Positions 1 to 49,826 of a stretch of DNA of 64,000 bases are shown here, piece after piece (the first letter of the stretch is position 1; each line of letters starts with the position of its first letter). Under the pieces are notes generated by a model. That model searched no databases. It worked only from the letters and a program-made list of their open reading frames with translations, and was not told where the DNA came from. The position numbers and the translations under genes are program-made. The DNA comes from Ignavibacteria bacterium (GTDB lineage: Bacteria > Elusimicrobiota > Endomicrobiia > PHAN01), in NCBI GenBank assembly GCA_041694835.1, contig JBGFRZ010000082.1, positions 52,266 to 116,265 on the forward strand. Direction: 5' to 3'.

Positions 1-1511
1 ACAATGCCTTTTTCAATTTTTTCCTTGTTCGCTTCGTAAATTTTGTTCCATTTATCTTTTGTGCCGTAATACCTCTGCGAAATCGACTGCAACGTTTCTC
101 CGGGAAGCACCTTATGCGTTCTTGCGGCAGGTGGCGGCGGTGTTCTTTCAGGACGTCTGCGCATCTCCTCGGAAATAACAGACGGACTGGAGACCTCTAC
201 ATTTAAAATATCGGTAATGTTTTTTTCGGGAGTTTTTGTAAATTCCGCCGGTGAGGGCGGGGTTGATATTAAAACCGGAATAATCTCTTTTTTCTGGACA
301 GGCGCATAAGTGGATATTTCAGCGGTAAACTCCGTTAGAAGTAAGTCACCAGAGGCGGCCGGCCCCGATGAATATAGGGGAACTTCTAACGGGATAAATT
401 GTTTTTCTTGCACGAGAGCGGGTTCAGGCGGTGGTATCGGCAACTTTCTGTGTTCTTCGAATTTGACGGGATGGAATGTTTCCCGCGTTTTAACGACATC
501 TTTTTTTCTTTCACCGAAATAAACCGAAATACCGAACATATGACTCCCCGACATTTCAGACATACCCCCTAAAGGATACAACATCGCATAGTCGAAAGAA
601 ATATTTTTAATGTTCATTCCGAGACCCGCTGTAATCCTCCTGTAATTATTGCTGCCAAAATTGAACCCTGTCCTCAAAACAAGTACTTCGTTTAACAATT
701 TCTTTTCGACTCCCAAATTGACCGTCTGCCGTTCGGACGATATTACATAATCGGCGGCAAGCAGAAAATCTTTTTCCTCGTATGACGCTCCGAATACATT
801 TCCGGCCGGTCTCTTGTATTTTTTATTATCTTCGCTTTCAATCTCCGTGTGATAACCAAATTTTATATTGCCGAACCGCAAAATAACTCCCAATGGAAAA
901 GACATGAAATCTCTGTTATACGGTTCTCTAAATACGGGGTCGACTTTTTGATAATTATCTCGTATGGGAATTCTTATCAAATAATTTTTGACGCCAGCGC
1001 CGACGAAAACAAAATTATGCGGGTTCCACGAAAAGTTGAGCGCATAAATTTCTTCAGAATAATAATCACCGAGGGAAAGACCGCTGTAGCCTGCGCCAAA
1101 ACCGAAATTTCTAAAAGGTATTCCGAAAGAAAAAGAAGCGTTTGATATATTGCTCCTGTCATCTAGACCAATATGCAGTTTGCTGTAGCCAAACGAGAGA
1201 GTCGTATTTCTAAGAGACGAAACGCTCGATGGATTAAAAAACACAACTCCCGCATCCTCCGTCATAGAAGCCGCTGCCATACCGAGAGAACTTATGCGAG
1301 CGAAAGCAGGTTTTTCCTCGAAAGCCGCATAAAGGCAGACAATAGGCAATAGGCAGTGGGCAATAGTAAAATATAGGCAATAGGCAATAGGCAGTAGGCG
1401 GTAGTAGTTGGCGGTTGGCGATTTGTGATATGAATAACGAGCCACAAGCCACGAGCCACGAGCCACCAATAAACTTTTAAACTCTTGAACTATCCTCTGT
1501 CTTTTATTCAT
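1..1511 (-). CDS. FadL/OmpP1/PorV-like outer-membrane beta-barrel with C-terminal LysM domain (3' end runs off window start; start codon uncertain: ATG at 1511 or internal ATG ~1285/1264)
   Basis: Hand translation of the minus strand is open from 1511 to position 1. The N-terminal motif ARISSLGMAAAS..EDAGVVFFNPSSV matches the FadL-family signature SxGLGxA..ADDA...NPA. The same motif occurs in the ORF at 15423-17057. The C-terminus HKVLPGETLQSISQRYYGTKDKWNKIYEANKEKI is a typical LysM. It is not in the ORF track because there is no stop codon inside the window. Confidence 0.5.
   Translation of the reverse strand, partial: MNKRQRIVQEFKSLLVARGSWLVARYSYHKSPTANYYRLLPIAYCLYFTIAHCLLPIVCLYAAFEEKPAFARISSLGMAAASMTEDAGVVFFNPSSVSSLRNTTLSFGYSKLHIGLDDRSNISNASFSFGIPFRNFGFGAGYSGLSLGDYYSEEIYALNFSWNPHNFVFVGAGVKNYLIRIPIRDNYQKVDPVFREPYNRDFMSFPLGVILRFGNIKFGYHTEIESEDNKKYKRPAGNVFGASYEEKDFLLAADYVISSERQTVNLGVEKKLLNEVLVLRTGFNFGSNNYRRITAGLGMNIKNISFDYAMLYPLGGMSEMSGSHMFGISVYFGERKKDVVKTRETFHPVKFEEHRKLPIPPPEPALVQEKQFIPLEVPLYSSGPAASGDLLLTEFTAEISTYAPVQKKEIIPVLISTPPSPAEFTKTPEKNITDILNVEVSSPSVISEEMRRRPERTPPPPAARTHKVLPGETLQSISQRYYGTKDKWNKIYEANKEKIEKGI
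1290..1470. repeat. imperfect 7-8 bp periodic low-complexity repeat (ataggca / ggcaatag units, then agccacg units) overlapping the predicted signal-peptide coding region of the FadL/LysM gene
   Basis: The DNA shows aggcaataggcaataggcagtgggcaatag...ggcaataggcaataggcagtaggcggtag and gagccacaagccacgagccacgagccacc. On the minus strand this reads as a hydrophobic LLPIAYCLYFTIAHCLLPIVCLYAAF stretch. Confidence 0.6.
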
Positions 1512-17093: not shown

Positions 17094-17462
17094 TTAATGT
17101 ATGACTCCAATTTTTCTTAAAGCCACTATCTTCCCGCCATCGACGGAAACCACACAGATATATCCGCCCTTGGCGACGTAATGACCGTTTTCGTCGCGAC
17201 CGTCCCACAGGATTGTATCTCCAAAAAATTCGAGATGCTTGACGGGGCGGCCAAAAAGATCGAAAATTTTTACCGCAATTCCAACGTCGGTCTGATTTGA
17301 TTTTTTTACAAGGATGCTTGTGGAAGTTTTTCTCGAATCGAACGGATTGGGATAGTTTGAAAGAAATATGTCAGAAGATGATGCGACGGATGCCGTCAAC
17401 AAAAGAATTGATGAGGCGAAAGGGATAAGTAAAAGATAATTTAAAAAGTTGATGTGCTTCAT
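17094..17462 (-). CDS. small secreted protein consisting of a signal peptide plus T9SS type-A C-terminal sorting domain (FlgD-Ig-like CTD) only (122 aa)
   Basis: LSNYPNPFDS...VKIFDLFGRPV..L....ILWDGRDENGHYVAKGGYICVV...KIVALRKIGVIH matches the TIGR04183/PF13860 CTD pattern. It is the first gene of the operon. Confidence 0.5.
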   Translation of the reverse strand: MKHINFLNYLLLIPFASSILLLTASVASSSDIFLSNYPNPFDSRKTSTSILVKKSNQTDVGIAVKIFDLFGRPVKHLEFFGDTILWDGRDENGHYVAKGGYICVVSVDGGKIVALRKIGVIH

Positions 17463-17971
17463 AAATTGCCTTCGGTAACCCGGCCGCCATAATCTCGCAT
17501 TTTGCTTGATGTTAGGCCCGTATCCTGACCTATAGTCAGAATGACCCGATTCAACATCGGGATCGGCTTTGCGTCCTCCGGTTTCCCGGAGTTTGCCATT
17601 TATCGGACAATCCTTACGTTTCCATCTCCGCCACGGCGGAAGGGGGCTATCAAAATAAAAATGCTACCGAACTTCCGCCCGGTAGCATAAAGATAGGGGG
17701 TCCTAAAACTTGTTGCAAACCACTACAACCGCAACCGCTAACAAATTAAACTTACTACACCTTCTCTCGGTAGCCCGGCCAGCTCCCCCGACATTATGTC
17801 GGGGGCATCGCTCCGATTTCCCGAAACGATTTTGATAGCCCCCTATCTTTAGCTCCGCGGCTTTGCGTCCTCCGGTTTCCCGAAGTTTGCCTTTATCGCA
17901 ATATATATATAATAAAATTTATGACATTTGTCAAGGTTTTTTTAACAGCCGAAATTCTGCCAAAAATTGCA
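17463..17971. other. structured 510-bp non-coding leader/element: two 41-bp direct repeats (17565-17605, 17859-17899) flanking ~250 bp with perfect hairpins and a 15-bp inverted repeat
   Basis: The direct repeat ggctttgcgtcctccggtttcccg(g/a)agtttgcc(a)tttatcg occurs twice. gggggctatcaaaat at 17641 pairs with attttgatagccccc at 17826. The hairpin cccccgacattatgtcggggg has a 9-bp stem and gctaccgaacttccgcccggtagc a 7-bp stem. No ORF >=60 aa lies in this region. Confidence 0.5.
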
Positions 17972-19892: not shown

Positions 19893-21317
19893 CTATATCT
19901 TCCCCCATGGTTTTCTTTTTACAAATCGCCCGTGTCCGACGGTGCCGGTAAATTTTCCGTCTTTCGCTACGATTTTTCCGCGAGAGATTGTAACGGCGGG
20001 GTAACCTTTTAATTTCATACCCTGGAAAGGCGACCAGTCGCATCTGGTCTGCATATTATTAAAATCAATAACAACCCGTTTATTTGGGTCAAAGACGCAG
20101 ATATCGGCGTCGGAGCCGACTTTGATTGTTCCTTTCTGAGGGTATAGTCCGAAAATTTTGGCGGGGTTCGTTGAGACGACTTCCACGAATCTGTTGAGCG
20201 AGAGTTTTTTCTTGTTAACACCCGCGGTAAATATCGTCGGAACCATCGTCTCAAGCCCCGGTATACCGAATGGAATTTTTGTAAAATCCCCCTGCCACAT
20301 CGCTTTTTGTTTTGTGTCAAATGTGCAGGTGTCGGTTCCTATGGTGTCAATGTATCCTTTTTTCAATCCTTCCCAAAGACCCAGCTGGTCGTGTTTCTTT
20401 TTTACCTGCGGACAAATGCCGTAAAGGTGTCCCGTTTCCCTGGATTTATAAACATCGTCGGTCAAAAGGAGATAAGTCGGACAGGTCTCCGCCCATATTT
20501 TTACGCCGTCTCTTTTCGCCTCGCGCACAATCTCGGCGCTTTCCGACGCCGACATATGGACGATAAAAAGCCGTCCGCCCGTTTCTTTTGCCCAAGTCGC
20601 CGCGCGGCGGACCGCCTCGTATTCTGTATAACAAGGACGAGCCATCGCGTGAAGATAGGCGCCGTATTTATTCATCATCTCCTGCGTGTGGTATCTCTCA
20701 ATAAGGAGGTCCAGGACAATCGCACTCTCGGCGTGGACAAGGATTAGTCCTCCGTGTTTTGCCGTTTCCTCAAGCCCTTGAAAAAGTATTCCGTCGTCAG
20801 CCATCCAGCCCTGAGAGCGATAAATCATAAACATCTTAAAAGAGGTCACACCGTCCTTTACGAGGTCGCTCATATCTCTTCTCACATTCTCGTTCCACTT
20901 GGTTATTCCGCCGTGAAGAGCGTAATCCACGCACACTTTTCCGTCGGCTTCTTTCTTCCTCGCCTCAACGGTTTCAATAAGAGAACCCCCTTTGTCCTGT
21001 ATGGCTATGGCGAAATCAATAACGGTGGTCACGCCGCCGCATGCCGCGGCTTTCGTGCCATTTTCAAAATCGTCGCATGAAACCGTTCCGCAAAAAGGCA
21101 GCTGCAAATGCACATGGGCATCAATCGCGCCGGGAAAAACAAGCAATCCCCTGGCATCGAGCATATGGGCGCCATCTGCTCTGATGTCTTTTTTGACCGA
21201 GACGACTTTCTCTCCTTTGATGGCGATGTCGGCAACAAATGTCTTTTCGGCAAGAACGATTTTTCCGCCTTTAACGACTAAATCAAATGACATAAAACCT
21301 CCTCTTAATATAGGCAA
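19893..21317 (-). CDS. dihydropyrimidinase / D-hydantoinase (cyclic amidohydrolase)
   Basis: GAIDAHVHLQLPFCGTVSCDDFENGTKAAACGGVTTVIDFA parallels the dihydropyrimidinase metal-binding N-terminus (GGIDPHTHLQMPFMGT..DDF..GTKAAL.GGTT). Confidence 0.8.
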   Translation of the reverse strand: MPILRGGFMSFDLVVKGGKIVLAEKTFVADIAIKGEKVVSVKKDIRADGAHMLDARGLLVFPGAIDAHVHLQLPFCGTVSCDDFENGTKAAACGGVTTVIDFAIAIQDKGGSLIETVEARKKEADGKVCVDYALHGGITKWNENVRRDMSDLVKDGVTSFKMFMIYRSQGWMADDGILFQGLEETAKHGGLILVHAESAIVLDLLIERYHTQEMMNKYGAYLHAMARPCYTEYEAVRRAATWAKETGGRLFIVHMSASESAEIVREAKRDGVKIWAETCPTYLLLTDDVYKSRETGHLYGICPQVKKKHDQLGLWEGLKKGYIDTIGTDTCTFDTKQKAMWQGDFTKIPFGIPGLETMVPTIFTAGVNKKKLSLNRFVEVVSTNPAKIFGLYPQKGTIKVGSDADICVFDPNKRVVIDFNNMQTRCDWSPFQGMKLKGYPAVTISRGKIVAKDGKFTGTVGHGRFVKRKPWGKI

Positions 21318-21321
21318 AGAA

Positions 21322-21600
21322 AAATAGGAAATAGGGAACGATGGAAAGAACGGTGCCAGATGTCAGATGCAGGTTAAAACGACAGATACACGTTGTAGCG
21401 GCACCGCCTTGCAGTGCAAATAATTGGCATCGTAAAGCTTGTCCTCGCAGGGGAACGATGCATCTACCTGTATTCTGTATTTGCTTTTCCTTTATCCTGC
21501 ATCCTGTATCTGTTTTTTGGTATCCGGGATCCGGTATCCGCTATCGCTTTTGTCTGTTCTACTGCTCCGACCTCTGACCTCTCATCTCTGACCTCTGTTT
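21322..21600. repeat. long imperfect hairpin-like intergenic element: purine-rich arm (aggcaaagaaaaataggaaatagggaacgatgg...cagatgtcagatgcagg) then pyrimidine-rich arm (ttcctttatcctgcatcctgtatctg...gacctctgacctctcatctctgacctctg)
   Basis: Word-level reverse complementarity between the two halves, e.g. gatgcagg versus cctgcatc and cagata versus tatctg. No ORF is present. Confidence 0.45.
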
Positions 21601-22072
21601 ATTCCAGCATATATTCTTCAAAAGGAATTCCTTTCTTAATCAATTCTTCGCGCCAGAGTTGTTTTGCCTTCGGCATTTTTTCGCGTGAGCGTCTCACCCA
21701 TTTTGATTCGGGCGGCGAAAAGAGTTCCGCCGCCGTCTGATACCATACATATGCATATTTTATTGACGATTCTTCTCGTTCTCTTTTATTGTTAAACTCA
21801 ATGATTTCTGTTTGTATTTCGTATTCTTTCTGTGAGATTTTTTTTGAATCCAACTTCTTTTGAAGTGATGTTTTTTCTTTGGAGAGTTTTTCGTCAAAAA
21901 ACTTCTCTTTTAATTGAGGGTTTTCGTGCCATGCCCAAAACTTTTCGCCTTCAAGATACGCCGAGCGAGCACGCATTACAACATCAACATAAATGAGCGC
22001 ATAAACTGCAATTATGGTAGCAACGACCGAGGCGGCAATTCTTTGCCATTTTTTAGGAAATAATTTATTCAT
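21599..22072 (-). CDS. hypothetical membrane-anchored protein (157 aa)
   Basis: Track ORF with an N-terminal TM segment (IAASVVATIIAVYALIYV). No recognisable motif. Confidence 0.3.
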   Translation of the reverse strand: MNKLFPKKWQRIAASVVATIIAVYALIYVDVVMRARSAYLEGEKFWAWHENPQLKEKFFDEKLSKEKTSLQKKLDSKKISQKEYEIQTEIIEFNNKREREESSIKYAYVWYQTAAELFSPPESKWVRRSREKMPKAKQLWREELIKKGIPFEEYMLE

Positions 22073-22469: not shown

Positions 22470-23474
22470 CTAAACAGATAGTAATTTTAATTGATGAATA
22501 TGTTGATACCGATAATGATTACGTTTAATCAAAGAATGCTTTTTTTCAATGTCAACTTCTTTCAATCTTCGAATAGCAATTTTTACATATTCACTATTAG
22601 AATCAATTCCAATGTATTTCTTTTCTAATATCTTGGCAGCGACTGTCGTGGTAGCGCTCCCAACAAAAGGGTCTAATATAATGGCATTTTTAGAAAAAGC
22701 CGATAACTGAATCAAATATTCACAGATCGCTAATGGTTTCACTGTTTTATGTAGATTATAATCTCCTTTTTCTTTCTTTGATGGTTTGGGCAACAGGAAC
22801 ACTTTATCAATCTCAGTGTTTATGTTTTCAGTGGTAATTACATTTGCTGGATACATATTTTTACCCAATCTAATATTCGTATTTACCAAACCAACTTTGT
22901 ATTTCAACATGTTGTTTAGATAAGTAGTGTCTGTCGGTTTTTGCGCCACAGCAATAGGTTCAAAACAAGATTTAATCTGCGGGGTCTTCCATCCGTGCAA
23001 TCTTTCTCTAATAATATTTTTTTGGTCATTGCCAGCTCCCATCTTATCAATAAAATGATTAAGCCCCATTGCCTTTGCCTGATTTTGAGTATAGAGCCAC
23101 ATGAAAACATCTCTGATCTCAAATCCCGCATCGTCCAATGCTGATGCCATTCTATGATATAGGCGAGGACTAGAAAATGAAAAGAAAAATCCACCGGGTT
23201 TCAATAATCTGATAATTTCCTTTGATATTTTTAAATACCAACTATAAAATCTGACGCCTTGTTCTCTCTCAAATTTCATTCCAGCTGGCAATGACTTTAT
23301 GATGTAGTGATTGCGTGTATTAGTTACTACTTCATGATTCCATTGGTTGTCCAGTTTATCTAAAAAATACGGGGGGTCAGTTATAACAAGATCTATTGAA
23401 TTGCTTTCAATTTGCGGAAGCACGTTTAATGCATTATCACATATAATTTTATTCAAAAATTTTTTGTTTTTCAT
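22470..23474 (-). CDS. DNA methyltransferase, N6-adenine/N4-cytosine (PF01555-type, DPPY motif)
   Basis: LVITDPPYF is motif IV. ILDPFVGSATTTVAAKILEKKYIGIDSNSEYVKIAIRRL is the C-terminal AdoMet motif I. The gene is visibly AT-richer than its flanks. Confidence 0.8.
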   Translation of the reverse strand: MKNKKFLNKIICDNALNVLPQIESNSIDLVITDPPYFLDKLDNQWNHEVVTNTRNHYIIKSLPAGMKFEREQGVRFYSWYLKISKEIIRLLKPGGFFFSFSSPRLYHRMASALDDAGFEIRDVFMWLYTQNQAKAMGLNHFIDKMGAGNDQKNIIRERLHGWKTPQIKSCFEPIAVAQKPTDTTYLNNMLKYKVGLVNTNIRLGKNMYPANVITTENINTEIDKVFLLPKPSKKEKGDYNLHKTVKPLAICEYLIQLSAFSKNAIILDPFVGSATTTVAAKILEKKYIGIDSNSEYVKIAIRRLKEVDIEKKHSLIKRNHYRYQHIHQLKLLSV

Positions 23475-23477
23475 ACT

Positions 23478-23972
23478 CTATTTTATTTCGGAAGGTTTTT
23501 TACCGTCAAACTTATCATATAGAATTTTGTAAATTTTTATTTTTATCTCTCTATCGCAAGTTCTTACCACATTTGAATCGGCAACTTTTATTACTCTGCC
23601 TTTTTCGTCATAAACCCATCTATTCCTATCTCCACGATTACACTTTTGACATTGAGGAATAATATTATCCGCAACTAATGGTTTACGAGGATTCATATGA
23701 GCTTTTTGTAATTTTGTTTTTGTGGCAGGCCAATGCAAATGAGGCAGTCCTTCTTCGGAACCACATGTGGCGCATCTAAAATGATATTTTTCTTTCATCT
23801 TACTCCAATCGTCCGTATCACTAATTCTATGTCCTTTTTTAAAAGATGGGTAGGGCTTTTCTAATGTGTATAATTGATACTCCCCCCTTTTAAGATTCAA
23901 GACGATATTATCTCTGCCCCCTGCCACAATCCACCAACCTTTTTGTGCTCCTAAATGCCTGGCCTGTTGCAC
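23478..23972 (-). CDS. HNH endonuclease (probable restriction-endonuclease partner; 5' part appears frameshifted, with a protein-like reading continuing to ~24190 in two frames)
   Basis: FRCATCGSEEG...NIIPQCQKCNRGDRNR is an HNH/Zn-finger motif. The track ORF begins at a GTG. Upstream, the same frame continues protein-like (..LVYLAQNYPYTNKVTKEELTRFIREFDPDVND) up to a TAA. A 45-codon ATG ORF (MDKNEIYRIYHTIIKECHAKHLEKYGVGLPRLHDASGNFKRMRLF) sits in another frame. Confidence 0.45.
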   Translation of the reverse strand: MQQARHLGAQKGWWIVAGGRDNIVLNLKRGEYQLYTLEKPYPSFKKGHRISDTDDWSKMKEKYHFRCATCGSEEGLPHLHWPATKTKLQKAHMNPRKPLVADNIIPQCQKCNRGDRNRWVYDEKGRVIKVADSNVVRTCDREIKIKIYKILYDKFDGKKPSEIK

Positions 23973-25414: not shown

Positions 25415-25430
25415 AAAACCTCCTGACTCC

Positions 25431-25545
25431 GCTATAGCGGGAAGTTAAAGGTCAAAGGATAAAGGGTAAAGGTCAAAATATTTAGATTTTATACCTTTAA
25501 TTTTAACCTTTCACCTTAAATTTTAACCTTTATATTCTTCTTATC
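25431..25545. repeat. purine-arm/pyrimidine-arm imperfect hairpin element (aaaggtcaaaggataaagggtaaaggtcaaaat ... tacctttaattttaacctttcaccttaaattttaaccttt)
   Basis: The two arms are reverse complements at word level. The element is intergenic between the M20 amidase and preA. Confidence 0.45.
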
Positions 25546-26757: not shown

Positions 26758-26769
26758 ATTCTATACCCC

Positions 26770-26900
26770 GGCGACATAGCGACGCATCGACTCAGCGACA
26801 TAATAGCAGAGCAACAGAGCAGTAGCGAGTAGCGGGTAGATAGTAGATAGGGGGAACAACCCTCGCTACTCGCTACCATCTACTATCTACTATTCGCTAT
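26770..26900. repeat. purine-arm/pyrimidine-arm imperfect hairpin element (cagagcagtagcgagtagcgggtagatagtagatag-ggggaacaacc-ctcgctactcgctaccatctactatctactattcgc)
   Basis: Sub-words are exact reverse complements: tagcgagtagcg pairs with cgctactcgcta, and gtagatagtagatag pairs with ctatctactatctac. The element is intergenic. Confidence 0.5.
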
Positions 26901-26903
26901 TTG

Positions 26904-28742
26904 CTATCTACCATCCAACTCCAGTTCTTTCAACTTTTCCTGCTTCGGTATTCCTTCTTCATCCCATCCGCGATGGACATAATACTCCATAACCATTTTT
27001 GCGACATTCGGGACCACGCCTTTCGCTTTTCCTTCTTTTTTCGGATATACGGTAATTCTCGACGGTTCCAGGTCATCTTTTCTTGAAATGCCGAGGCGCG
27101 TGTTGTAGAGCCGTTTTAAATCGAACAATCGCTCGCCTGTTTTCATATAGTCGTCGAGTGTCCAGTCCCATCCACAAACGGCGTTGACCCAGTTTGAAAT
27201 CTGCGACGGACCCACACGGGCGTGAAACAGAAATTTACAGAGTCCGAGCGGATTAAATAATGATATAAAATTTTGCATCTCAAAAACAATTTTCGGTTTG
27301 TCGGTTTCTTCAAACTGGTTCGGCGGGGCGGTGATTCCCAGATCTTTGCAAGGGACGCCCCTATCAAGAAAGTATGTGAGACCTTCAAGATGACACGCAC
27401 CTCTTGCGGCGGTCGCGTAGTTGATTGCCATAGAGACATGTCCTCTCGGGTCGTGGGCGGGAAAGTCAAGTCCTTTGTTGTGAGAAACATACTCGATAGT
27501 ATTTTTGCCGATGGCTTTTGCCGCATCTCTGACACCTTTTGCAAGGAGAACACCGATGTTTTTTTTGTAAGCGGTCATCTTAATTATTTCAACGAGAGTC
27601 TTCGCGTCGCCCCATTTGAACTCAACGTCTCCAGTGTCTGCTCTTGTGATTTTTCCTTTCTCGTAACACTCAATCGCAAACGCGGCGACAGAGCCCATGG
27701 AAATCGTATCCATACCGAGCTTATTTGTGAGTTCGTTTATATACGCCAATACATAGAGGTCGTTATTTAAAACATTTGAGCCGAGCATCGCGACGGTCTC
27801 ATACTCGGGATAGTGGCCACAGAAACTTCCGAAGTTCTTTAACTCGCCCTTGACGAGCTTGCCGCAGCCGATGGGACATGCCCAGCAAGCGTAGTGCTTG
27901 ACCCAGATTTTTTCTCTCATCGCCTGTCCCGAAATTTTTACAATATCGGGATACGTTCCAATGGCGTAATTTTTTATCGGAAGGTCGCCGAACGACTCAA
28001 CTGCAGGAGAGCCGCCGGCAGTACCAAATTCTCCGAGGGCTTTTGCATTTTCTTTTATCGCGGGTATTTCTTCTTTAAGCAGTGCTCTTAATTTTTCGGG
28101 GTCTGCGACGGCGACTCTTTTCCCCTGACCTTTTACGACGATAGCTTTAAGGTTTTTTGAGCCCATGTTGGCACCGATGCCCGAGCGCGCCGCAAAACGG
28201 GAATTGGGCGGGTCAAAACAAATTGCGGCTATACTGACAAGATTTTCTCCAGCAGGGCCTATCGCGGCGACGAGATGCTTCTCATGTCTCTTTGAGAGAA
28301 TTTCACCGGTTTCGTAGGTATCCTTTCCCCACAAATCACTGGCATCCTGTATCCTGCATCCTGCATCTATTATTAGATAAACCGGCTTATTGGATTTTCC
28401 CGTTATTAAAATTCCGTCATATCCGAGCATCCTGAATTCCGTCGGCCAATGGCCGCCCACGGTCGCTTCGTTCCAAATGCCCGTAAGCGGCGATTTTGCG
28501 CAGACGGACATTTTGCAGGCAGTCGGCACGACTGTCCCGGTTAAAAGCCCCGACAAAAACAAAATTGGATTTTCTTCTGAAAGTGGCGCGAGGTTAACAG
28601 GGGCTTCGTTGTAAAGAATCTTTGCGGCAAGACCCGAGCCGAGCGTATATTTTTTGACATCCGTCTCATTGATTGGTTTCTCGCCGATTTTTCCCGACGA
28701 CAAATCAACGGTTAAAATTTTCCCATGAAATCCGTTCGGCAT
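26904..28742 (-). CDS. aldehyde:ferredoxin oxidoreductase (tungsten-containing AOR family)
   Basis: The N-terminus MPNGFHGKILTVDLSSGKIGEKPINETDVKKYTLGSGLAAKILY matches the AOR N-terminus pattern (M.G..GKILRVDL..G.I). Length is 612 aa. Confidence 0.8.
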   Translation of the reverse strand: MPNGFHGKILTVDLSSGKIGEKPINETDVKKYTLGSGLAAKILYNEAPVNLAPLSEENPILFLSGLLTGTVVPTACKMSVCAKSPLTGIWNEATVGGHWPTEFRMLGYDGILITGKSNKPVYLIIDAGCRIQDASDLWGKDTYETGEILSKRHEKHLVAAIGPAGENLVSIAAICFDPPNSRFAARSGIGANMGSKNLKAIVVKGQGKRVAVADPEKLRALLKEEIPAIKENAKALGEFGTAGGSPAVESFGDLPIKNYAIGTYPDIVKISGQAMREKIWVKHYACWACPIGCGKLVKGELKNFGSFCGHYPEYETVAMLGSNVLNNDLYVLAYINELTNKLGMDTISMGSVAAFAIECYEKGKITRADTGDVEFKWGDAKTLVEIIKMTAYKKNIGVLLAKGVRDAAKAIGKNTIEYVSHNKGLDFPAHDPRGHVSMAINYATAARGACHLEGLTYFLDRGVPCKDLGITAPPNQFEETDKPKIVFEMQNFISLFNPLGLCKFLFHARVGPSQISNWVNAVCGWDWTLDDYMKTGERLFDLKRLYNTRLGISRKDDLEPSRITVYPKKEGKAKGVVPNVAKMVMEYYVHRGWDEEGIPKQEKLKELELDGR

Positions 28743-29027: not shown

Positions 29028-29816
29028 CTATTTCAAAAAATCACAGATAGACCCAACTAAACCAGAAAAATTGCCAATACCGTCAAGATGGTCGTAATTA
29101 TTCAAAACAAACAATCCCCCTCCAAGTTTAATATCATCAATAATCAGTTGCACTTCTGTCTGTTTTACTGTTTTTCTGGTTTTTCCACTTTCATTATATT
29201 TATCAAAATCCCTATATCTTGCCCAATCAAGAGTAATAAAACCATATTTGATTTGTAAATTTTCTTTTGTAAAAATGACCGTATATTTATCTTTACCATA
29301 TTTTGCATTTAATACATCTTGATCCATCAAAAATAAATGAGATAAAAATTGTCCGATTCTTTCTCTTGTTGTACCTTTTGCCGATAATATAAAAGCCTTT
29401 TTTATTTTTTCAAAATTATCTTTAACAACTACAATATCACTATCAAATTTCTTGATGTGACTTGTATTTTTTCTCACAAGACACAGAGAATTGGTAACAT
29501 AAGAAATAATATCGTTATAAGTTTTGTGGTTTGTTGCCAAATAATTTAATTTATTTTCCTTGAAGTAAGCATTGAGTAAATATACTATACTTTCTTCTAC
29601 CAATTTTCCAAGAACCGAATCTTTGCTTGATTTTTCTTGCCTTGCTTCGTCCTCTGTTTTCTTCTTATCAAATTGCGAAGCATATTTTTTAGCATATTTA
29701 TTTGCATCTGAAAAAATGAAGTATTTATTCAAGTTTACCCCAACATTTAAACTACCTTTGTCTTTTATCACTTTGCCTAATTTTCCTTCTAAATAACTTT
29801 TGTGAACTAAATCCAT
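29028..29816 (-). CDS. hypothetical protein, candidate type II restriction endonuclease (partner of adjacent methyltransferase)
   Basis: Immediately downstream (18-bp gap) of the MTase gene. It is AT-rich with no recognisable family motif. The call rests on gene context only. Confidence 0.35.
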   Translation of the reverse strand: MDLVHKSYLEGKLGKVIKDKGSLNVGVNLNKYFIFSDANKYAKKYASQFDKKKTEDEARQEKSSKDSVLGKLVEESIVYLLNAYFKENKLNYLATNHKTYNDIISYVTNSLCLVRKNTSHIKKFDSDIVVVKDNFEKIKKAFILSAKGTTRERIGQFLSHLFLMDQDVLNAKYGKDKYTVIFTKENLQIKYGFITLDWARYRDFDKYNESGKTRKTVKQTEVQLIIDDIKLGGGLFVLNNYDHLDGIGNFSGLVGSICDFLK

Positions 29817-29833
29817 AATAAACCCTCTTTCCT

Positions 29834-30706
29834 TTATAAAAGTTTAGGTTGTCTTGCAACAATCTTTATATTTTTTTCTGCTATTTCACAATATTCTCGG
29901 CAATTATCTATATAAATATATTTTCTTTCAGTTTTTACACTAACAACTGGAACTGTTCCAGTTCCCCCAAAAGGGTCTAAAACTATATTATCAATGTATG
30001 AATAAAATTTAACTAAACGATATATAAGTTTTTCTGGAAAGGGTGCCGGATGTCCTTTTGGTTGAGTTTGAGGTTTTATGTCCCAAAATGAATTTGAAAA
30101 TTCTATAAATTCCTCTTTTGTAATATCTATCTTTTTAGGTTCTCCCTCTAATTTTTTTTCTTCTTTACTAAACACTAATACGAATTCATACGGTTGAACA
30201 ACATAAGGATTTGATGGAGATTTCCAAGAACCCCAAGCAGTTCTTTTCGAAATTGCTTGTTTATACCACAATATATCACCTCTCATAATATAGCCAATTT
30301 TTCTCATTTGATTAACGACATCTACAAAAAGTGGTTGATATTGTCCGTCAGCCGTCACACTTGGTACATTTATGCAAATTCTACCTCCTTTAATTAAAAC
30401 ACGATAGCATTCAAACCAAACTTTTTCAAGCCAATCTAGATATTCCTTGTAAGGCATATTATCATAATGGTTCTTGTATGGTTTTCCTACATTATATGGT
30501 GGGGATGTAATTATAAGATGAATAAAATTTTCCGGCATTAATTTCATAACTTCTACACAATCACCACAAATAACTTGATTTATAAACCTATTTTCCGATT
30601 GAACAAGAATTTCTTTTTGAGTAATTGTGTGATATGGTATTACCGTTTCTTCCAACAAATTATTCTTTGTTACTTTCTTTTTTTTATATTCCATTGATTT
30701 ATCCAA
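29834..30706 (-). CDS. DNA methyltransferase, N6-adenine/N4-cytosine (PF01555-type, SPPY motif)
   Basis: ITSPPYNVGKPY is motif IV. VLDPFGGTGTVPVVSVKTERKYIYIDNCREYCEIAEKNI is motif I. The gene is AT-rich. Confidence 0.8.
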   Translation of the reverse strand: MDKSMEYKKKKVTKNNLLEETVIPYHTITQKEILVQSENRFINQVICGDCVEVMKLMPENFIHLIITSPPYNVGKPYKNHYDNMPYKEYLDWLEKVWFECYRVLIKGGRICINVPSVTADGQYQPLFVDVVNQMRKIGYIMRGDILWYKQAISKRTAWGSWKSPSNPYVVQPYEFVLVFSKEEKKLEGEPKKIDITKEEFIEFSNSFWDIKPQTQPKGHPAPFPEKLIYRLVKFYSYIDNIVLDPFGGTGTVPVVSVKTERKYIYIDNCREYCEIAEKNIKIVARQPKLL

Positions 30707-31959: not shown

Positions 31960-31998
31960 ATATCAACTCTTCGTCCAATGTAACCTGGGGCACTGCAC

Positions 31999-32049
31999 TA
32001 TTTTTCTATCCCCTATTTTCTATCCCCTATTTTCTATCCTCTATTCTTT
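31999..32049. repeat. 3 tandem copies of a ~14-bp unit (tattttctatcccc)
   Basis: The DNA reads ctatttttctatcccctattttctatcccctattttctatcctctattc, intergenic between the biotin-carrier and CoA-transferase genes. Confidence 0.6.
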
Positions 32050-32337
32050 GACCTTAACAAGTATATCATTTTTTCCAACTTTATTGCCAACTTTCACGAA
32101 AATCTTCTCTATTTTCCCTTTAACTTCTGAAATTATCTCGTTTTCCATTTTCATCGCTTCCAGAATTATAATCGTTTCTCCCGACGATACGGCATCCGTT
32201 TCTTTTTTTTTGACTTCAATTATAACGCCGGGGATAGGCGAAGCGATAAGATAAGGATTATTGGCCTTTTCTGCACGGATTTTTTTGTCCGGAAATTCGG
32301 TAATATACTCTCCGTCTTCAAGAATCAGTTTGTCCAT
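32041..32337 (-). CDS. biotin carboxyl carrier / biotin-lipoyl attachment domain protein
   Basis: EAMKMENEI carries the AMKM biotinyl-lysine motif. The start was chosen at MDKLILEDGEY, because the track ORF's extra 21 N-terminal codons are read through a low-complexity hairpin element (32338-32449). Confidence 0.7.
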   Translation of the reverse strand: MDKLILEDGEYITEFPDKKIRAEKANNPYLIASPIPGVIIEVKKKETDAVSSGETIIILEAMKMENEIISEVKGKIEKIFVKVGNKVGKNDILVKVKE

Positions 32338-32449
32338 AATCAGAGACAAGAGAACAGAGGTGAGAGGACAGAGGTCAGGGAAAAACCTCTCACCTCTCAT
32401 CTCTCTCCTCTATTCGCTATTCGCTGTCCACTATTCTCTATTCCCCAAT
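32338..32449. repeat. purine-arm/pyrimidine-arm imperfect hairpin element (cagagacaagagaacagaggtgagaggacagaggtcaggg-aaaaac-ctctcacctctcatctctctcctctattcgc...)
   Basis: Direct reading of the DNA. It has the same architecture as the elements at 21322, 25431 and 26770. Confidence 0.45.
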
Positions 32450-33985
32450 TTACAGCGGAATGTTGCCGTGTTTTCTGTCGGGTTTTTTTGAACGTTTGTT
32501 TTTCATAACGGAAAGCGCTGAAACAATTTTAAGACGCGTTTCTTCGGGCAGAATAACATCGTCGATATAGCCGAACGACGCCGCAATGTAAGGCGAAGCG
32601 AATTTTTCGGTGTATTCTTTCATCTTGTCCTGTCTTGTTTTTTCGGGTTGGGACGAGGACTCTATCTCTTTCTTGAAAATTATGTTTGCCGCGCCAAGCG
32701 GACCCATAACAGCTATCTCGGCCGAAGGCCATGCGAACACAAAGTCGGCCCCGAGATGGCGGCTGCACATCGCTATGTATCCACCACCGTAGGCCTTCCT
32801 CAATATCACGGTAAGTTTCGGAACGGTCGCCTCAGAATATGCATAAAGCATCTTCGCTCCGTGCCTGATGACGCCCGAATGCTCCTGCTCAATGCCGGGG
32901 AGATATCCCGGGATATCGGCGAAAGTTACGATAGGTATGTTAAATGAATCGCAAAATCTTATGAATCTTGCAGCCTTGTTGGAAGAATCTACGTCAAGAA
33001 CGCCGGCGAGAAACTTGGGCTGATTGGCGATTATACCGACGGATTCCCCGTCGAGATGTGCAAAACCTACGACTATATTTTTCGCGTGCATCGCCTGGAC
33101 TTCAAAAAAATCTCCGTCATCGAAAACGGCTTTTATGACGTCCCTGACATCATACGGTTTTTTGGGGTCGGAGGGAACAATCGAATTTAAGTCGGCAGAA
33201 GGTGGGGGGCGCCGCTCGGCGAGGGGTGGTTTTTGTGCGTTATTATCTGGCAAGTAAGAAAGCAAAGTTTTAATCTGTTCAATACACTCCTTTTCACTTT
33301 CGGCATAAAAATGCGCATTGCCGGTTATTTCGTTATGAACCCTTGCGCCGCCGAGATCTTCCATACTTATTTCCTCTCCAAGAACGGTCTTTATAACCTC
33401 CGGGCCGGTGATAAACATCTTCGATATTTTGTCAACCGTAAAAACAAAGTCAGTCAGAGCGGGGGAGTAAACCGCTCCTCCGGCACAAGGCCCGAGTATG
33501 ACCGAAATCTGCGGGATTACCCCGGAAGAAAGGGTGTTTCTGTAAAATATTTCTCCGTAACCGGCGAGAGCGTTGATGCCTTCCTGTATCCTCGCTCCAC
33601 CTGAGTCGTTTATGCCTACTAGCGGGATACCTGAACTTAACGCGAAATCCATTATTTTAGTAATCTTCCTGGCGTGCATCTCTCCCAGAGAACCTCCGGC
33701 GGACGTGAAGTCTTGAGAAAATACAGCGAGACACCTCTCGTTAACTTTTCCATGACCAACAATTACGCCATCGGCCGGAATTTCTTTTTTGTCAAGTCCG
33801 AAATTGGATGAGCGGTGTTTAACGAAAGGGTCTATCTCGACGAAGCTTCCCTTGTCAAACAGCAAATCAAGCCTTTCCCTTGCTGTAAGCTTGCCGGAGT
33901 CGTGCTGTTTTTTAACAGCGACGCTGCCGCCGAGAGAAATTAGATTCCCGCGACTTTTGCCGAGTTCTTCGTTTTTATCCGTCAT
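32450..33985 (-). CDS. acyl-CoA carboxyltransferase (methylmalonyl-CoA decarboxylase alpha / propionyl-CoA carboxylase beta family)
   Basis: GINDSGGARIQEG and the two-domain carboxyltransferase layout. Length is 511 aa. Confidence 0.85.
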   Translation of the reverse strand: MTDKNEELGKSRGNLISLGGSVAVKKQHDSGKLTARERLDLLFDKGSFVEIDPFVKHRSSNFGLDKKEIPADGVIVGHGKVNERCLAVFSQDFTSAGGSLGEMHARKITKIMDFALSSGIPLVGINDSGGARIQEGINALAGYGEIFYRNTLSSGVIPQISVILGPCAGGAVYSPALTDFVFTVDKISKMFITGPEVIKTVLGEEISMEDLGGARVHNEITGNAHFYAESEKECIEQIKTLLSYLPDNNAQKPPLAERRPPPSADLNSIVPSDPKKPYDVRDVIKAVFDDGDFFEVQAMHAKNIVVGFAHLDGESVGIIANQPKFLAGVLDVDSSNKAARFIRFCDSFNIPIVTFADIPGYLPGIEQEHSGVIRHGAKMLYAYSEATVPKLTVILRKAYGGGYIAMCSRHLGADFVFAWPSAEIAVMGPLGAANIIFKKEIESSSQPEKTRQDKMKEYTEKFASPYIAASFGYIDDVILPEETRLKIVSALSVMKNKRSKKPDRKHGNIPL

Positions 33986-43431: not shown

Positions 43432-43701
43432 CGATTCCCTCCCATGAAATCCTTCGGATTTCTACATGAGTGTGTATCAGTGCCGACTTAGGCATTCGCT
43501 TCCTGCAAACATTATAGTAATTATTTTTGGTTTTTCAAAAGGTGCTACACTCAAATGTACTGCGGGGGTTGACCCCGTTAGAAATTATAGCGCTCTTAAG
43601 AGGAAATTAAAAGTTTCCCTGAACTCCTCAAATCATCAGAGATTTCTAACGGGGTTGACTAAAAAATTCGTATTTGATAGAATAACTCGCATATAATTTG
43701 A

Positions 43702-46351: not shown

Positions 46352-46412
46352 TAGTTCAAGAGTTTATTGGTGGTTCGTGATTCGTTTCCTCCAGCCACCA
46401 GCCACTTTTTTT

Positions 46413-48433: not shown

Positions 48434-48674
48434 TGTAGGGGCTTTCTAATGCTCTGTGCCATAAATAATTGACATTTTATCACAGAGACGCGGAGAAAAG
48501 TGAAAGTATCACAAAGAAATTACCAACGGAGATTTGAACTCTGTGTTTTTTCTCTGTGTTCTTTGTGCCTCTGTGGTAAGGCTTTTCAGTTCTGTGTTAT
48601 TAAAACCCTTAACCACGAAGACACGAAAACGCGAAAAATATCGTTCTCTTTTTGTAAATCCCCCTGCTTCGCTT

Positions 48675-48710
48675 CCCCCTTTACAAAAGGGGGTTAGAGG
48701 GGGATTTTCC
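48675..48710 (+). terminator. candidate intrinsic terminator hairpin ccccctttacaaaaggggg followed by ttagagggggatttt
   Basis: A perfect 8-bp G/C-rich stem with a U-tract nearby. It lies 240 bp downstream of mnmE, in a repeat-rich spacer. Confidence 0.3.
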
Positions 48711-48893
48711 ATGATTTCTAACTTTCGCGCTTTCGTGGTAAAGTTTTTTCTCTGTGTTCTCCTTGCCCCGTTAGATGCTTGCTATCTAACGGAGTGAATG
48801 TCTCTGTGGTGAATTTTAGCGAAGCGCCAGTGAACCCTAAATATCATCTGTGGGCGGCGCCTTATATGACTTTCGGCAGGAGCTATTGACTTT

Positions 48894-49691: not shown

Positions 49692-49776
49692 TATCTAAAA
49701 ATCCGCTTCTATTTAAGGTTATATCAACTATTACATCTGTCTAAATAACAAAATATGACATTAAAAGGCAAAAAAA

Positions 49777-49826
49777 GATATCAACAAAAAGATATCAACA
49801 AGTGTTGATAATTTTGTGGATAACAT
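49777..49826 (+). promoter_or_regulatory. DnaA-box cluster upstream of dnaA: perfect box tgtggataa (49815-49823), 1-mismatch box tgttgataa (49803-49811), two copies of agatatcaaca
   Basis: The consensus TTATCCACA is read on the complementary strand. The perfect box is 13-21 bp before the dnaA ATG. Confidence 0.6.

Follow-up and report, generated by a model that had tools for sequence, protein, structure and literature searches.

The gaps between operon genes in this DNA are occupied by fast-evolving arrays of 7-nt repeats, with a purine-rich arm and a complementary pyrimidine-rich arm. They represent a variant of bacterial "heptamer repeats", a phenomenon that is poorly understood, and do not constitute a new class of element. 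They are built from degenerate tandem 7-nt units that hold a single phase over up to 140 nt, and on the sense strand a G/purine-rich array precedes a C/pyrimidine-rich array made of the reverse-complement words. The material consisted of the whole 64-kb stretch of DNA, referred to here as the window, together with a few kilobases from relatives. Comparison of the two suggests that the elements are lineage-specific and fast-evolving within an Elusimicrobiota (Endomicrobiia-like) clade. The elements and their landmarks in the window are listed below.

1335–1475, minus strand: N1, heptamer arrays downstream of the gene for a T9SS-domain protein.
21294–21598, minus strand: A, whole spacer between a 157-aa membrane-protein gene and a dihydropyrimidinase-like amidohydrolase gene; upstream stop TAA at 21599–21601, downstream ATG at 21293, SD at 21298–21305.
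21463–21598, minus strand: purine-rich arm of A, 136 nt, about 20 in-phase heptamers directly after the stop codon.
21391–21462, minus strand: non-repetitive core of A.
21310–21390, minus strand: pyrimidine-rich arm of A.
25441–25540, minus strand: B, between an M20 peptidase/carbamoylase-like gene and a dihydropyrimidine-dehydrogenase-like gene.
25415–25515: gene-to-gene limits of the B spacer; the array extends toward the upstream gene to about 25540.
26770–26915, minus strand: C, between the AFOR gene and an M20 peptidase gene.
26758–26903: gene-to-gene limits of the C spacer; the array reaches 26915.
31995–32050, minus strand: N2, single-arm array without a hairpin, sense (TAGRRRA)x6-7.
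32338–32449, minus strand: D, fills the gap from the methylmalonyl-CoA carboxyltransferase gene to the biotin carboxyl carrier gene; upstream stop at 32450–32452, downstream ATG at 32337 with no SD beside it.
46352–46412, plus strand: X, 61-nt spacer from the yidC stop to the ATG (46413) of a jag-like gene.
48434–48893: limits of the mnmE–ksgA spacer, region E, with purine/pyrimidine hairpins of word period 8–13 nt.
48474–48580, plus strand: E1, purine-arm/pyrimidine-arm hairpin, CACAGAG... versus ...CTCTGTG, with a word period of 9–13 nt, not 7.
48606–48745, plus strand: E2, outer hairpin with period-8 words that encloses an inner G/C-rich hairpin.

A period of 7 was detected by TRF in A, B, C, D, N1, N2, and X, with autocorrelation maxima at lags 7, 14, 21, and 28. 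A sliding scan of the 64-kb window returned seven period-7 arrays and zero arrays with periods of 5, 6, or 8–11. All seven are confined to five intergenic spacers amounting to about 8% of the window, a distribution for which we estimate a chance probability of about 3e-6. Two sets of control bacterial DNA were subjected to the period-7 scan, one comprising loci from an M20 peptidase search (horizontally related Clostridia, Treponema, and similar, at no more than 84% identity) and one obtained by a metagenome search with the carboxyltransferase (nearest match 71% identity). These controls contained 2 arrays in 1.35 Mb and 12 arrays in 0.98 Mb, and period-7 arrays are thus 10- to 70-fold enriched in the window compared to the 2.3 Mb of control DNA. 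Heptamer arrays were also seen in a few other lineages (L129, L118, and L098) of the metagenome set.

Every array is intergenic and flanked by co-directional genes, and period-7 TRF rows inside genes are only short and weak, or are conserved coding sequence. The latter applies to a heptamer-like stretch at 28342–28367 within the AFOR gene, which is not an array insertion. The stop codon of the upstream gene marks the start of the array, or is overlapped by it, in A–D and N2, and the arrays continue to the ribosome-binding site or start codon of the next gene. No array is present at the junctions of recently inserted R-M cassettes. An assembly artefact is unlikely, as the elements are contig-internal, have intact flanking genes, and recur in independent assemblies (NCBI MAGs, Logan).

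At least seven word families occur within the 64 kb (CAGAGGT, AAAGGTx, GTAGCGA/GATAGxx, CCGGATA, CAGGATA, TGGCTCG, and CAATAGG), and no single fixed heptamer consensus was found to be reused across the elements of the window. Individual positions are invariant through 8–9 consecutive units of differing words. G3+ tracts are not a feature of every unit, GGG or GGGG being restricted to a few (three GGGG in N2, one in D). The 5′ half is G-rich and the 3′ half C-rich in 11 of 12 elements, E1 and E2 being left out of the count, and with the same omission this polarity holds for all elements with significant hairpin potential; the exception is N1, in which the GC skew of the 5′ half is −0.03. Two convergent arrays on opposite strands lie close together in A, B, C, D, and X, as well as in the elements of relatives.

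The original prediction had named five spacers between co-directional genes as sharing a purine-half/pyrimidine-half architecture. All five exist, with purine fractions in A–D of 0.73–0.81 in the 5′ half versus 0.17–0.37 in the 3′ half, and the placement is true of all arrays. Its fifth member, the region at 48.5 kb, does contain purine/pyrimidine hairpins, but with words of 8–13 nt region E is a looser relative of the heptamer elements. Word content had been described as differing between copies, which is partly the case; blocks of words are common to A and D, and others to C, D, and N2. That the words are tandem heptamers had been missed, as had three further members (1335–1475, 31995–32050, and 46352–46412).

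Inspection of the single elements illustrates the range of the design. In A, TRF reports period 7 at 21488–21510, 21519–21545, and 21565–21597, and autocorrelation is 0.59, 0.44, 0.41, and 0.38 at lags 7, 14, 21, and 28. Element B pairs AAAGGTx words in one arm with xACCTTT words in the other, has TRF period-7 rows at 25446–25472 and 25488–25532, and covers the last codons and the stop (25516–25518) of its upstream gene. The AFOR stop codon TAG (26904–26906) likewise sits within the array of C, which is composed of GTAGCGA, GTAGATA, and AATAGCG words and the complements of these. This element yields four period-7 TRF rows, with a lag-7 autocorrelation of 0.73 in its regular arm. On the plus strand it reads GTAGCGA GTAGCGG GTAGATA GTAGATA, a loop, and TCGCTAC TCGCTAC CATCTAC TATCTAC. 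The complementary words hence follow a direct rather than a mirror order (a a b b / a′ a′ b′ b′), bearing out the "similar but not mirror" arrangement originally described. Simple arm-to-arm templating was considered as a source of the arms and does not account for this order; full double pairing in C would amount to a sterically implausible pseudoknot.

In D, the sense strand contains nine in-phase NNNAGNG units, a loop, and CTCTGxC-type units, and the base of the hairpin brings the stop and start codons side by side. The first TAG of N2 is the stop codon of the biotin-carrier gene (32041–32043), and TRF assigns this array a period of 14/7 with 96% matches. The sense strand of N1 consists of (TGGCTCG)x4, followed by (CGCCAAC)x2 and (GCCTAYT)n, as judged by TRF and the scan. 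The compact element X reads TAGTTCAAGAGTTTATTGG TGGTTCG TGATTCG TTTCCTC CAGCCAC CAGCCAC TTTTTTT. In region E, the arms of E2 are formed by CACGAAGA CACGAAAA CGCGAAAA, paired with TTTCGCGC TTTCGTGG. A DnaA-box cluster, or oriC, was rejected as an identity for this region, no box with at most one mismatch being present in the spacer; the only perfect DnaA box lies at 49815–49823.

The sense strands are predicted to form stems of 30–50 bp in which the heptamer arm pairs with its complementary arm. Compared to whole-sequence dinucleotide shuffles, fold z-scores range from −2.6 to −4.0 (A, −83 kcal/mol, z −2.6; B, z −4.0; C, z −2.8; D, −46.6 kcal/mol, z −4.0; X, −15.4 kcal/mol, z −3.3). The complementarity also survives a stricter control, an arm-wise shuffle that keeps the purine/pyrimidine asymmetry, with z-scores of −2.7 (A), −4.3 (B), −1.9 (C), −2.2 (D), −4.4 (E1), and −5.1 (E2). 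Moreover, the 7- and 8-mers common to a purine arm and a reverse-complemented pyrimidine arm cluster within the same element (16 in C, 6 in D, 6 in E1, and 4 in E2), which indicates that complementarity resides at the level of words and not in composition alone. The single-arm array N2 has no fold (z +1.2) and the hairpin potential of N1 is weak (z +1.2), so a hairpin is not an obligatory feature. In 8 of 10 elements, the fold of the sense RNA is more stable than that of the antisense RNA (Wilcoxon p = 0.03), by 9 kcal/mol in the case of D. The energy gap is small overall, and G·U pair counts are alike in the two strands (30 vs 25), so that selection at the RNA level is weakly indicated.

Relatives reveal the turnover of the elements. 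At the A junction, the window and three other lineages (L086, L172, and L173) all carry purine-to-pyrimidine word hairpins with unrelated words and lengths from 75 to about 290 nt, in the neighborhood of a flanking gene that is 77–83% identical in nucleotide sequence across the four. L173 uses words of 8 nt or longer, as does region E. At that junction, the genes of more distant relatives overlap or are separated by ordinary spacers, and syntenic loci of relatives at 56–76% amino-acid identity are devoid of such arrays, with the exception of a mini-array in L168. This mini-array of only 24 nt and three units occupies the D junction, where CAGAGGT words in the window stand against GTGGCTG words in L167 and where the two genes overlap in HGW-Elusimicrobia-1. 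The genes flanking N2 overlap in L167, leaving no spacer, as do yidC and jag in L170 at the X junction. E1-like CACAG/CTGTG words are found in the orthologous spacer of L169 (MnmE 60% identical). Length and sequence vary at conserved positions, both at the A junction in its four lineages and at the C and D junctions between the window and L167. Between related species, the elements come and go, and their words are swapped entirely.

A second kind of similarity connects different junctions. N1, X, and the D-junction element of L167 have flanks, loop, and arm blocks in common and constitute one family, with the element inverted in L167. Positions 1436–1472 of N1 are 94.6% identical to positions 1260–1296 of L167, a non-orthologous locus, and a 72-nt alignment of the two scores 76 compared to a null of 15 ± 2.3. 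The X copies are about 95% identical between two genomes that are close to saturation at synonymous sites, with just 49–62% identity at the third codon positions of their orthologous genes. Homology also connects B with the A-junction element of L086 (score 49 vs null 17 ± 2.8). In the window and the sequence from relatives, homologous copies comprise three members of the X family and one B/L086 pair across two genomes, and most elements differ from one another.

Several other explanations were weighed against these data. A conventional cis-regulatory RNA, that is, an intrinsic terminator or attenuator or a thermometer that masks the ribosome-binding site, has a minimal chance of accounting for the elements. 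It would fit hairpins that lie just upstream of start codons and the G/C stem of X, which alone among the elements ends in U7. A–D, however, contain no site with a stem and T-tract, consistent with the original view that these are not simple terminators. The RNA thermometer raised at the same time is not supported: where an SD is present (A and B), it lies outside the main hairpin, pairing of SD and AUG is inconsistent, and the mean pairing probability at positions −15 to −4 varies from 0.31 to 0.73 without a consistent pattern. Stems of 30–50 bp are also far longer than those of known thermometers. D and X have no SD, which is not distinctive, given that about 40% of the genes in the window have a weak SD or none. 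A search of the spacers with Rfam 15 gave no match at the gathering score, and sub-threshold matches at E≤1 were solely to animal miRNA-precursor models, which represent generic long hairpins. Mobile units similar to REP/REPIN or MITE elements, inserted at gene junctions by an enzyme acting in trans (for instance a Y1 transposase of RAYT/IS200-IS605 type) and merely altered in their arms by later heptamer slippage, are an unlikely though better-founded alternative. Known elements of comparable type are REP/BIME/REPIN (Enterobacteria and Pseudomonas) and BOX (Streptococcus pneumoniae), which are scattered through extragenic DNA as imperfect palindromes, lie between co-directional or convergent genes, and are co-transcribed; REP/BIME stabilize upstream mRNA, and BOX has a variable count of internal tandem modules. 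Like them, the present elements are dispersed imperfect hairpins between genes. Mobility would agree with the occurrence of the same element, TTATTKG-(TGGCTCG)n-TTTCCTC-(CAGCCAC)n-TTTTTTT, at three unrelated junctions, in both orientations, in two diverged genomes, with the homology between B and the L086 element, and with insertions that fall precisely from stop to start codon at sites where the genes overlap in relatives. GTAG-containing words also resemble the REP 5′ tetranucleotide. Yet REPs are 20–40 nt long, near-identical, present in hundreds of copies, and tied to RAYT transposase, traits that were not seen in the material covered here, and they are free of 7-nt periodicity. The copies of the present elements are also much more heterogeneous than REP or MITE families. 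No transposase or RAYT was detected among about 30 window proteins scanned against Pfam, and neither terminal inverted repeats nor target-site duplications were seen at element ends judged by eye. Phase coherence across 20 units is better explained by growth in place. Of the options offered originally, "genome-specific structured spacers (REP-like)" nevertheless comes closest: the elements are lineage-specific, fold better than arm-preserving shuffles, and include some homologous copies at non-orthologous loci. REP membership is doubtful, with no RAYT among the window proteins scanned, copies that are not near-identical, and 7-nt tandem periodicity as the characteristic trait.

The arrays might instead be phased binding sites for an oligomeric protein that contacts RNA or DNA units 7 nt apart, with control of translation or antitermination of the downstream cistron as the effect; candidates would be a HutP-like ring (UAG-N4-UAG), cold-shock or S1-domain proteins (6–7-nt footprints), or CsrA on GGA. 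Several sense arms do present a fixed trinucleotide every 7 nt, as in (UAGNNNN)x6-7 of N2 and AUAG or NNNAGNG of C and D, and similar proposals exist for the TAACTGA repeats of Beggiatoa (PMC4679880) and for Nostoc heptamers (bioRxiv 10.1101/2022.06.06.494920). This reading is nonetheless very improbable: the words (AAGGT, CAGAGGT, CCGGATA, GTGGCTC, AAGAATT) are too varied for one sequence-specific reader, and sites in single-stranded form would be hidden once the two arms pair. The strongest competitor, possible if somewhat doubtful, is that the arrays are functionless by-products of slippage-prone replication or repair. Their restriction to non-coding gaps would reflect the frameshifts that 7-nt steps cause in genes, and their hairpin character would be a mutational side effect, for example of quasipalindrome template switching. 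Full turnover of words between species at one junction, the same operon without arrays in relatives, the non-hairpin arrays N1 and N2, the weak strand asymmetry, and array-free junctions of R-M cassettes (recent insertions) all fit such neutrality. What it does not readily accommodate is a purine-to-pyrimidine hairpin architecture kept at one junction in four lineages with the sequence wholly replaced, G-first order in 11 of 12 elements (again leaving out E1 and E2), and X copies that are about 95% identical despite near-saturated synonymous sites. Together, persistent architecture, polarity, and X identity point to selection or active copying.

Based on these considerations, the elements are probably slippage-grown, dispersed heptameric SSR hairpins that are co-transcribed as intercistronic stem-loops. 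Arrays would lengthen and diversify in DNA by slipped-strand mispairing in 7-nt steps, and local re-amplification of a unit that had acquired a point mutation would generate in-phase sub-arrays of differing words. Complementarity of the arms could be maintained by hairpin-templated repair, by selection, or by both, and entire elements would now and then be copied into new junctions. Because they are located inside operons, the elements are presumably transcribed, and the RNA would fold into a long imperfect stem-loop of 30–50 bp. Such a stem-loop would most likely be an intercistronic structure, a candidate RNase III processing site or 3′-end stabilizer. Processing sites, which were among the options offered originally, are plausible by analogy, with the RNase III-cleaved hmw hairpin of H. 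influenzae as experimental precedent. The stem-loop would hold 100–280 nt of untranslated C-rich RNA in double-stranded form, which may explain why expansions are tolerated in operons and why the G-rich arm comes first.

Several observations count against the slippage-hairpin model: the small energy difference between sense and antisense RNA; the arrays N1 and N2, which do not form hairpins; the direct word order in C, which is unexpected under simple arm-to-arm templating; the step of 7, which slippage alone does not explain; and the near-identical X copies in diverged genomes, which suggest constraint or mobility beyond plain slippage. A further proposal, to which we assign a distinctly low probability, regards the elements as selected, self-renewing "structured operon spacers" in which architecture, not sequence, is conserved through junction-to-junction copying and 7-nt slippage. 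G-first/C-second polarity and self-complementarity would then hide C-rich intercistronic RNA from Rho, and the stop codon would be kept next to the following start, examples being D and X with their SD-less start codons. Architecture as the conserved trait would explain hairpins of unrelated words at one junction in four species. In a stronger version of this proposal, a heptad-phased RNA-binding factor would read the arrays.

In many bacterial genomes, no long simple-sequence repeats are as over-represented as heptamers, which are enriched in intergenic DNA and attributed to polymerase slippage. To our knowledge, no explanation has so far been given for the 7-nt preference or for any general function of such repeats. 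With 7-nt tandem periodicity as the defining trait, the present elements are grouped with heptameric SSR/STRR-type repeats. Among their closest counterparts are the GGGAATC arrays of Xanthomonas campestris and X. axonopodis, of which 70–75 convergent inverted pairs have been described at conserved positions and with varying lengths (Rehm et al. 2015, PMC4692102). There, as in the present elements, the heptamers are tandem and intergenic and often form convergent, stem-loop-capable arrays, G-rich before C-rich, and position is conserved between related species whereas length and sequence are variable; most of the Xanthomonas arrays are transcribed (PMC4692102). The Xanthomonas pairs, however, use essentially one G3-containing word and have been discussed as G-quadruplex-forming (PMC4692102), in contrast to the several words per element seen here, in another phylum, most of them without G-tracts and differing by element and species.

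Cyanobacterial heptamers include the STRR of Calothrix and Nostoc, with GGGGAYT, TTTTGAA, and GACYAAT in Nostoc (PMC4692102, bioRxiv 10.1101/2022.06.06.494920), and Beggiatoaceae carry TAACTGA (PMC4679880). Like the present arrays, these 7-nt tandem repeats show a strong intergenic bias and frequently lie near start codons or within operons, one example being an array located between pecE and pecF; for such families, roles at the translational or post-transcriptional level have been suggested (PMC4692102, PMC4679880, bioRxiv 10.1101/2022.06.06.494920). In the STRR and TAACTGA families, a fixed heptamer is used genome-wide, mostly in single direct arrays, and paired arrays are few in Nostoc and limited to one indirect repeat among 170 sets in Beggiatoa (PMC4692102, PMC4679880, bioRxiv 10.1101/2022.06.06.494920). 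The vocabulary here is open, by contrast, and the paired purine/pyrimidine arrangement is dominant.

A transcribed heptamer SSR in the 5′-UTR of Haemophilus influenzae hmw1/hmw2 forms one arm of a hairpin whose other arm is complementary and purine-rich; RNase III cuts this hairpin, a cleavage needed for changes in SSR copy number (PMC12721329). The present elements resemble it in combining a heptamer arm with a complementary arm of opposite purine/pyrimidine bias into a long, here predicted, RNA hairpin, and by this analogy the hmw hairpin is the best mechanistic model for what they may do. It differs in being a single 5′-UTR locus of phase-variable adhesins, with the pyrimidine-rich SSR first and only one arm an array (PMC12721329), whereas the present hairpins occupy many intercistronic loci in housekeeping and metabolic operons and have arrays in both arms.

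The arrays have practical consequences for annotation and assembly. They extend or overwrite stop codons (the genes for the M20 peptidase and AFOR are examples) and make false upstream starts, so that the biotin-carrier gene, called at 119 aa, is more likely 98 aa long; they will also break short-read assemblies. More generally, Elusimicrobiota is a host phylum previously unreported for heptamer repeats. The presence of many differing words side by side argues against any single sequence-specific reader. At orthologous junctions, architecture is conserved without sequence, and the polarity is G-first (11 of 12 elements, without E1 and E2). These contrasts are what is needed to separate mutational from selective explanations.

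The hairpin spacers of this region are a real and statistically solid feature, of a kind that is already known and poorly understood. As the original prediction had it, a purine-rich half is followed by a pyrimidine-rich half in the five spacers it named (A–E), with purine fractions in A–D of 0.73–0.81 versus 0.17–0.37. The elements discussed below, and a dnaA-like ORF, are as follows.

21294–21598, − strand: spacer A
25441–25540, − strand: element B
26770–26915, − strand: element C
32338–32449, − strand: spacer D
48434–48893, + strand: spacer E, purine/pyrimidine hairpins with word periods of 8–13 nt (E1, 48474–48580; E2, 48606–48745)
1335–1475, − strand: N1, heptamer array, hairpin potential slight at most (z = +1.2)
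31995–32050, − strand: N2, heptamer array, hairpin potential slight at most (z = +1.2)
46352–46412, + strand: X, 61-nt hairpin in the yidC/jag gap
49836–51236, + strand: 466-aa dnaA-like ORF, whose homologue in a relative (L169) is DnaA

The predicted sense-strand RNA folds of A, B, C, and D have energies of −83, −35.5, −54, and −46.6 kcal/mol, lower than those of whole-sequence dinucleotide shuffles (z = −2.6, −4.0, −2.8, and −4.0). Because purine-rich and pyrimidine-rich arms pair to some degree whatever their words, a control was added in which each arm was shuffled on its own; z values for A, B, C, D, E1, and E2 were −2.7, −4.3, −1.9, −2.2, −4.4, and −5.1, and a second run confirmed them. 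The 7- and 8-mers common to a purine-rich arm and the reverse complement of a pyrimidine-rich arm fall mainly on the diagonal of an element-by-element matrix; arm complementarity is at the word level and largely element-specific. The non-mirror order proposed for the complementary words was also borne out, C reading a a b b / a′ a′ b′ b′. Of 10 elements, 8 fold more stably as sense than as antisense RNA (mean difference, 3.8 kcal/mol; Wilcoxon p = 0.03), with G·U counts similar on both strands, and these calculated energies weakly support folding at the level of the transcript.

The arm words are tandem heptamers, a trait that the original prediction did not see. TRF reports period 7 in each of A–D and in three further spacers, and a sliding period scan of the window found seven period-7 arrays and none at periods of 5, 6, or 8–11. 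All seven are intergenic, within five spacers (about 8% of the window); run on control DNA, the identical scan yielded 2 arrays from unrelated bacterial loci totalling 1.35 Mb and 12 from metagenome loci totalling 0.98 Mb. Autocorrelation peaks at lags of 7, 14, 21, and 28, and when units are stacked a single phase is maintained through sub-arrays of differing words, as in the twenty units that directly follow the stop codon in A or the nine NNNAGNG units of D. Such in-phase, multi-word stacks are the pattern expected if a single array diversified as its units mutated and were re-amplified locally, 7 nt at a time. A heptamer-like stretch inside the AFOR gene (28342–28367, − strand; GATGCAG GATGCAG GATACAG GATGCC), similar to the words of A, was rejected as an inserted array: it encodes the conserved peptide DAGCRIQDA and is therefore coding sequence.

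The DNA is a bacterial chromosome segment; its genes occupy the − strand between 1.5 and 43.4 kb and the + strand beyond 43.9 kb. Of the five flagged spacers, four belong to a single long operon (carboxyltransferase, biotin carrier, CoA-transferase, AFOR, M20 amidohydrolase, dihydropyrimidine-dehydrogenase-like protein, 157-aa membrane protein, dihydropyrimidinase-like protein, hydrolase, and PanC). The host is probably an Endomicrobiia-like member of the Elusimicrobiota, because the best matches of the lineage-restricted 157-aa protein carry Elusimicrobia or Endomicrobiia names. Two restriction–modification cassettes are inserted in the operon on the − strand, an N6_N4 methylase with a 164-aa ORF (22470–23972) and a BsaWI-like endonuclease with an N6_N4 methylase (29028–30706), the latter where the relative L167 has sucCD; neither has heptamer arrays at its junctions. 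Elsewhere on this strand, two tandem c-di-GMP-I riboswitch aptamers (17471–17607 and 17765–17900; models RF01051, 45 bits, and the GGC-variant RF03167, 60 bits) share a duplicated segment of ~40 nt and lie in the leader (509 nt) of an ORF of 122 aa without a Pfam match (17094–17462).

In the strand-switch region, the order is tRNA-Leu, yidC, jag, mnmE, ksgA, the 466-aa ORF, and a further ORF (51485–52636) in the place usual for dnaN. Candidate oriC parts flank the dnaA-like ORF: upstream (49772–49823), two copies of the perfect 14-nt direct repeat AAAAAGATATCAAC, adjoined by a perfect DnaA box (49815–49823) and a one-mismatch box (49803–49811); downstream, the AT-rich 248-nt spacer 51237–51484. 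Another dispersed palindrome family, CCCCGTTAGA ... TCTAACGGGG, does not consist of heptamer arrays; it forms three inverted pairs with differing loop lengths (330–394, 43573–43654, and 48766–48794), with 9 matches at up to one mismatch versus 2.8 expected.

The heptamer arrays fill the untranslated gap between genes. A begins at the nucleotide following TAA, the stop codon at N2 is the first TAG unit of the array, and in B and C the array ran past the point where the upstream gene once ended and now provides its last few codons and stop. The last 3–8 codons and stops of the M20 peptidase (25516–25540) and AFOR (26904–26915) genes, both on the − strand, are array sequence, and homologues align no further than residue 407 (of 413) and residue 609 (of 612), respectively; the arrays have overwritten the original gene ends. 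At their 3′ ends, A and B stop just short of a strong SD, and D and X reach the AUG without one; the predicted stem of D closes the entire spacer, so that stop and start codons adjoin. For the biotin carboxyl carrier protein, the longest ORF uses an ATG that falls within D's purine-rich arm and gives 119 aa, the length on record in the NCBI-sourced entry; homologues begin with MDKL, corresponding to the ATG at 32337 and 98 aa. The array has probably created a false N-terminal extension (32337–32400, − strand).

Orthologous junctions in the closer lineages show an architecture that persists while its sequence is replaced. At the A junction, the words are unrelated: a purine-to-pyrimidine word hairpin of 75 to about 290 nt is present in the window and in three relatives alike, built from CAGAGGT/CCGGATA/CAGGATA (window), AAGGTxA (L086), AAGAATT (L172), or GGAAATT (L173, period 8). 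The closest genome sampled (GCA_964492435.1, of which L167 and L086 are separate contigs) has GTGGCTG/CGAGCCA arms at the D junction, versus CAGAGGT arms in the window, an AAGGAAA array at the C junction, and overlapping genes at the N2 position. Among more distant relatives, the syntenic operon of HGW-Elusimicrobia-1 (157-aa protein 71% identical) has no arrays, its genes overlapping or being tightly spaced; in the ERR14788558 lineage, the sole array is a three-unit one (AAGCAGG CAACAGG CATTAGG) in a 24-nt D spacer; and in another relative yidC overlaps jag. E is a looser, more conserved relative of the class, given its 8–13-nt periods and the related CACAG/CTGTG words that a relative with 60% identical MnmE has in its orthologous spacer. 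A further relative (L170, 1978–2069; MnmE 59% identical) carries a purine-to-pyrimidine hairpin (z = −4.6) of 11-nt words containing GTATTTC in its jag–mnmE spacer, a spacer that the window lacks, and the architecture without period 7 therefore reaches further into the phylum. Multi-word heptamer arrays also occur in unrelated metagenome lineages (L129, 1786–1973; L118, 20001–20085; L098, 17822–17930); in L129, a high-GC organism, CCGCGTA, GTTCCAA, and GCCTTCC arrays fill the carboxyltransferase-to-biotin-carrier spacer, as D does, without purine/pyrimidine pairing.

Some elements share sequence between sites. N1 (1436–1472) is 94.6% identical to L167 1260–1296 at a non-orthologous junction, the alignment extending to 72 nt (score 76 versus a null of 15 ± 2.3). 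X and N1 share the 5′ flank TAGTTCAAGAGTTTA...TTGGTGG; in its loop (TTTCCTC), second arm, and T7 tail, X matches the L167 element read as its reverse complement; B aligns full-length to the L086 A-junction element (49 versus 17 ± 2.8); and an irregular 30-nt block is common to A and D, a different one to C and D. Proteins orthologous between the window and L086/L167 are 62–88% identical, with only 49–62% identity at third-codon positions of conserved residues. Some 95% across a 37-nt non-coding block is well above neutral expectation; the elements are either copied between sites or genomes or constrained in sequence. One of two main rival readings, mobile REP/MITE-like elements, we regard as unlikely; no transposase was present among the window proteins scanned.

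Polarity bears on whether the elements are neutral junk. In 11 of 12 elements (E1 and E2 left out), N1 being the exception, the 5′ half has a positive GC skew and the 3′ half a negative skew or none. Since an inverted repeat has equal polarity on both strands, polarity is a genuine two-state character, and a G-first order in 11 of 11 hairpin-forming elements is unlikely by chance (sign test about 5e-4, the elements not all being independent). Rho would have access to untranslated C-rich RNA that was transcribed first; transcribed second, that RNA would be caught at once by the G-rich arm, and the G-first order may serve as such a shield. Polymerase slippage is the cause put forward (Mrazek et al. 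[quoted passage not shown] Neutral junk is the other main rival, which we consider somewhat unlikely.

Known heptamer systems offer a guide to function. Xanthomonas has 70–75 convergent inverted pairs of GGGAATC arrays, conserved in position, variable in length, and mostly transcribed (PMC4692102). The STRR and other heptamers of Nostoc and Calothrix (PMC4692102, bioRxiv 10.1101/2022.06.06.494920) and the TAACTGA repeats of Beggiatoaceae (PMC4679880) are located within operon spacers or close to start codons, with roles proposed and none proven. The hmw 5′-UTR of H. influenzae is the sole case, of those compared, carried to mechanism: base pairing between its heptamer SSR arm and a complementary purine-rich one forms a hairpin that RNase III cleaves, and both hmw expression and SSR copy-number change require hairpin and RNase III (PMC12721329). 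By analogy, the present elements may work like these systems, belonging to no fixed-word family. A–D are not simple intrinsic terminators, as proposed, none of them having a stem plus T-run; the suggestion of RNA thermometers is not supported, pairing of the SD and AUG being inconsistent. An Rfam search of the spacers returned nothing except sub-threshold matches to generic miRNA hairpins.

Taken together, we think it rather probable that these hairpin repeats grew by slippage, were copied on occasion, and, if they act at all, do so as intercistronic RNA stem-loops. What they add to the known kind is the host phylum, multi-word arrays held in one phase, a conserved architecture without conserved sequence, a strict G-first polarity (N1 excepted), and homologous copies across loci.
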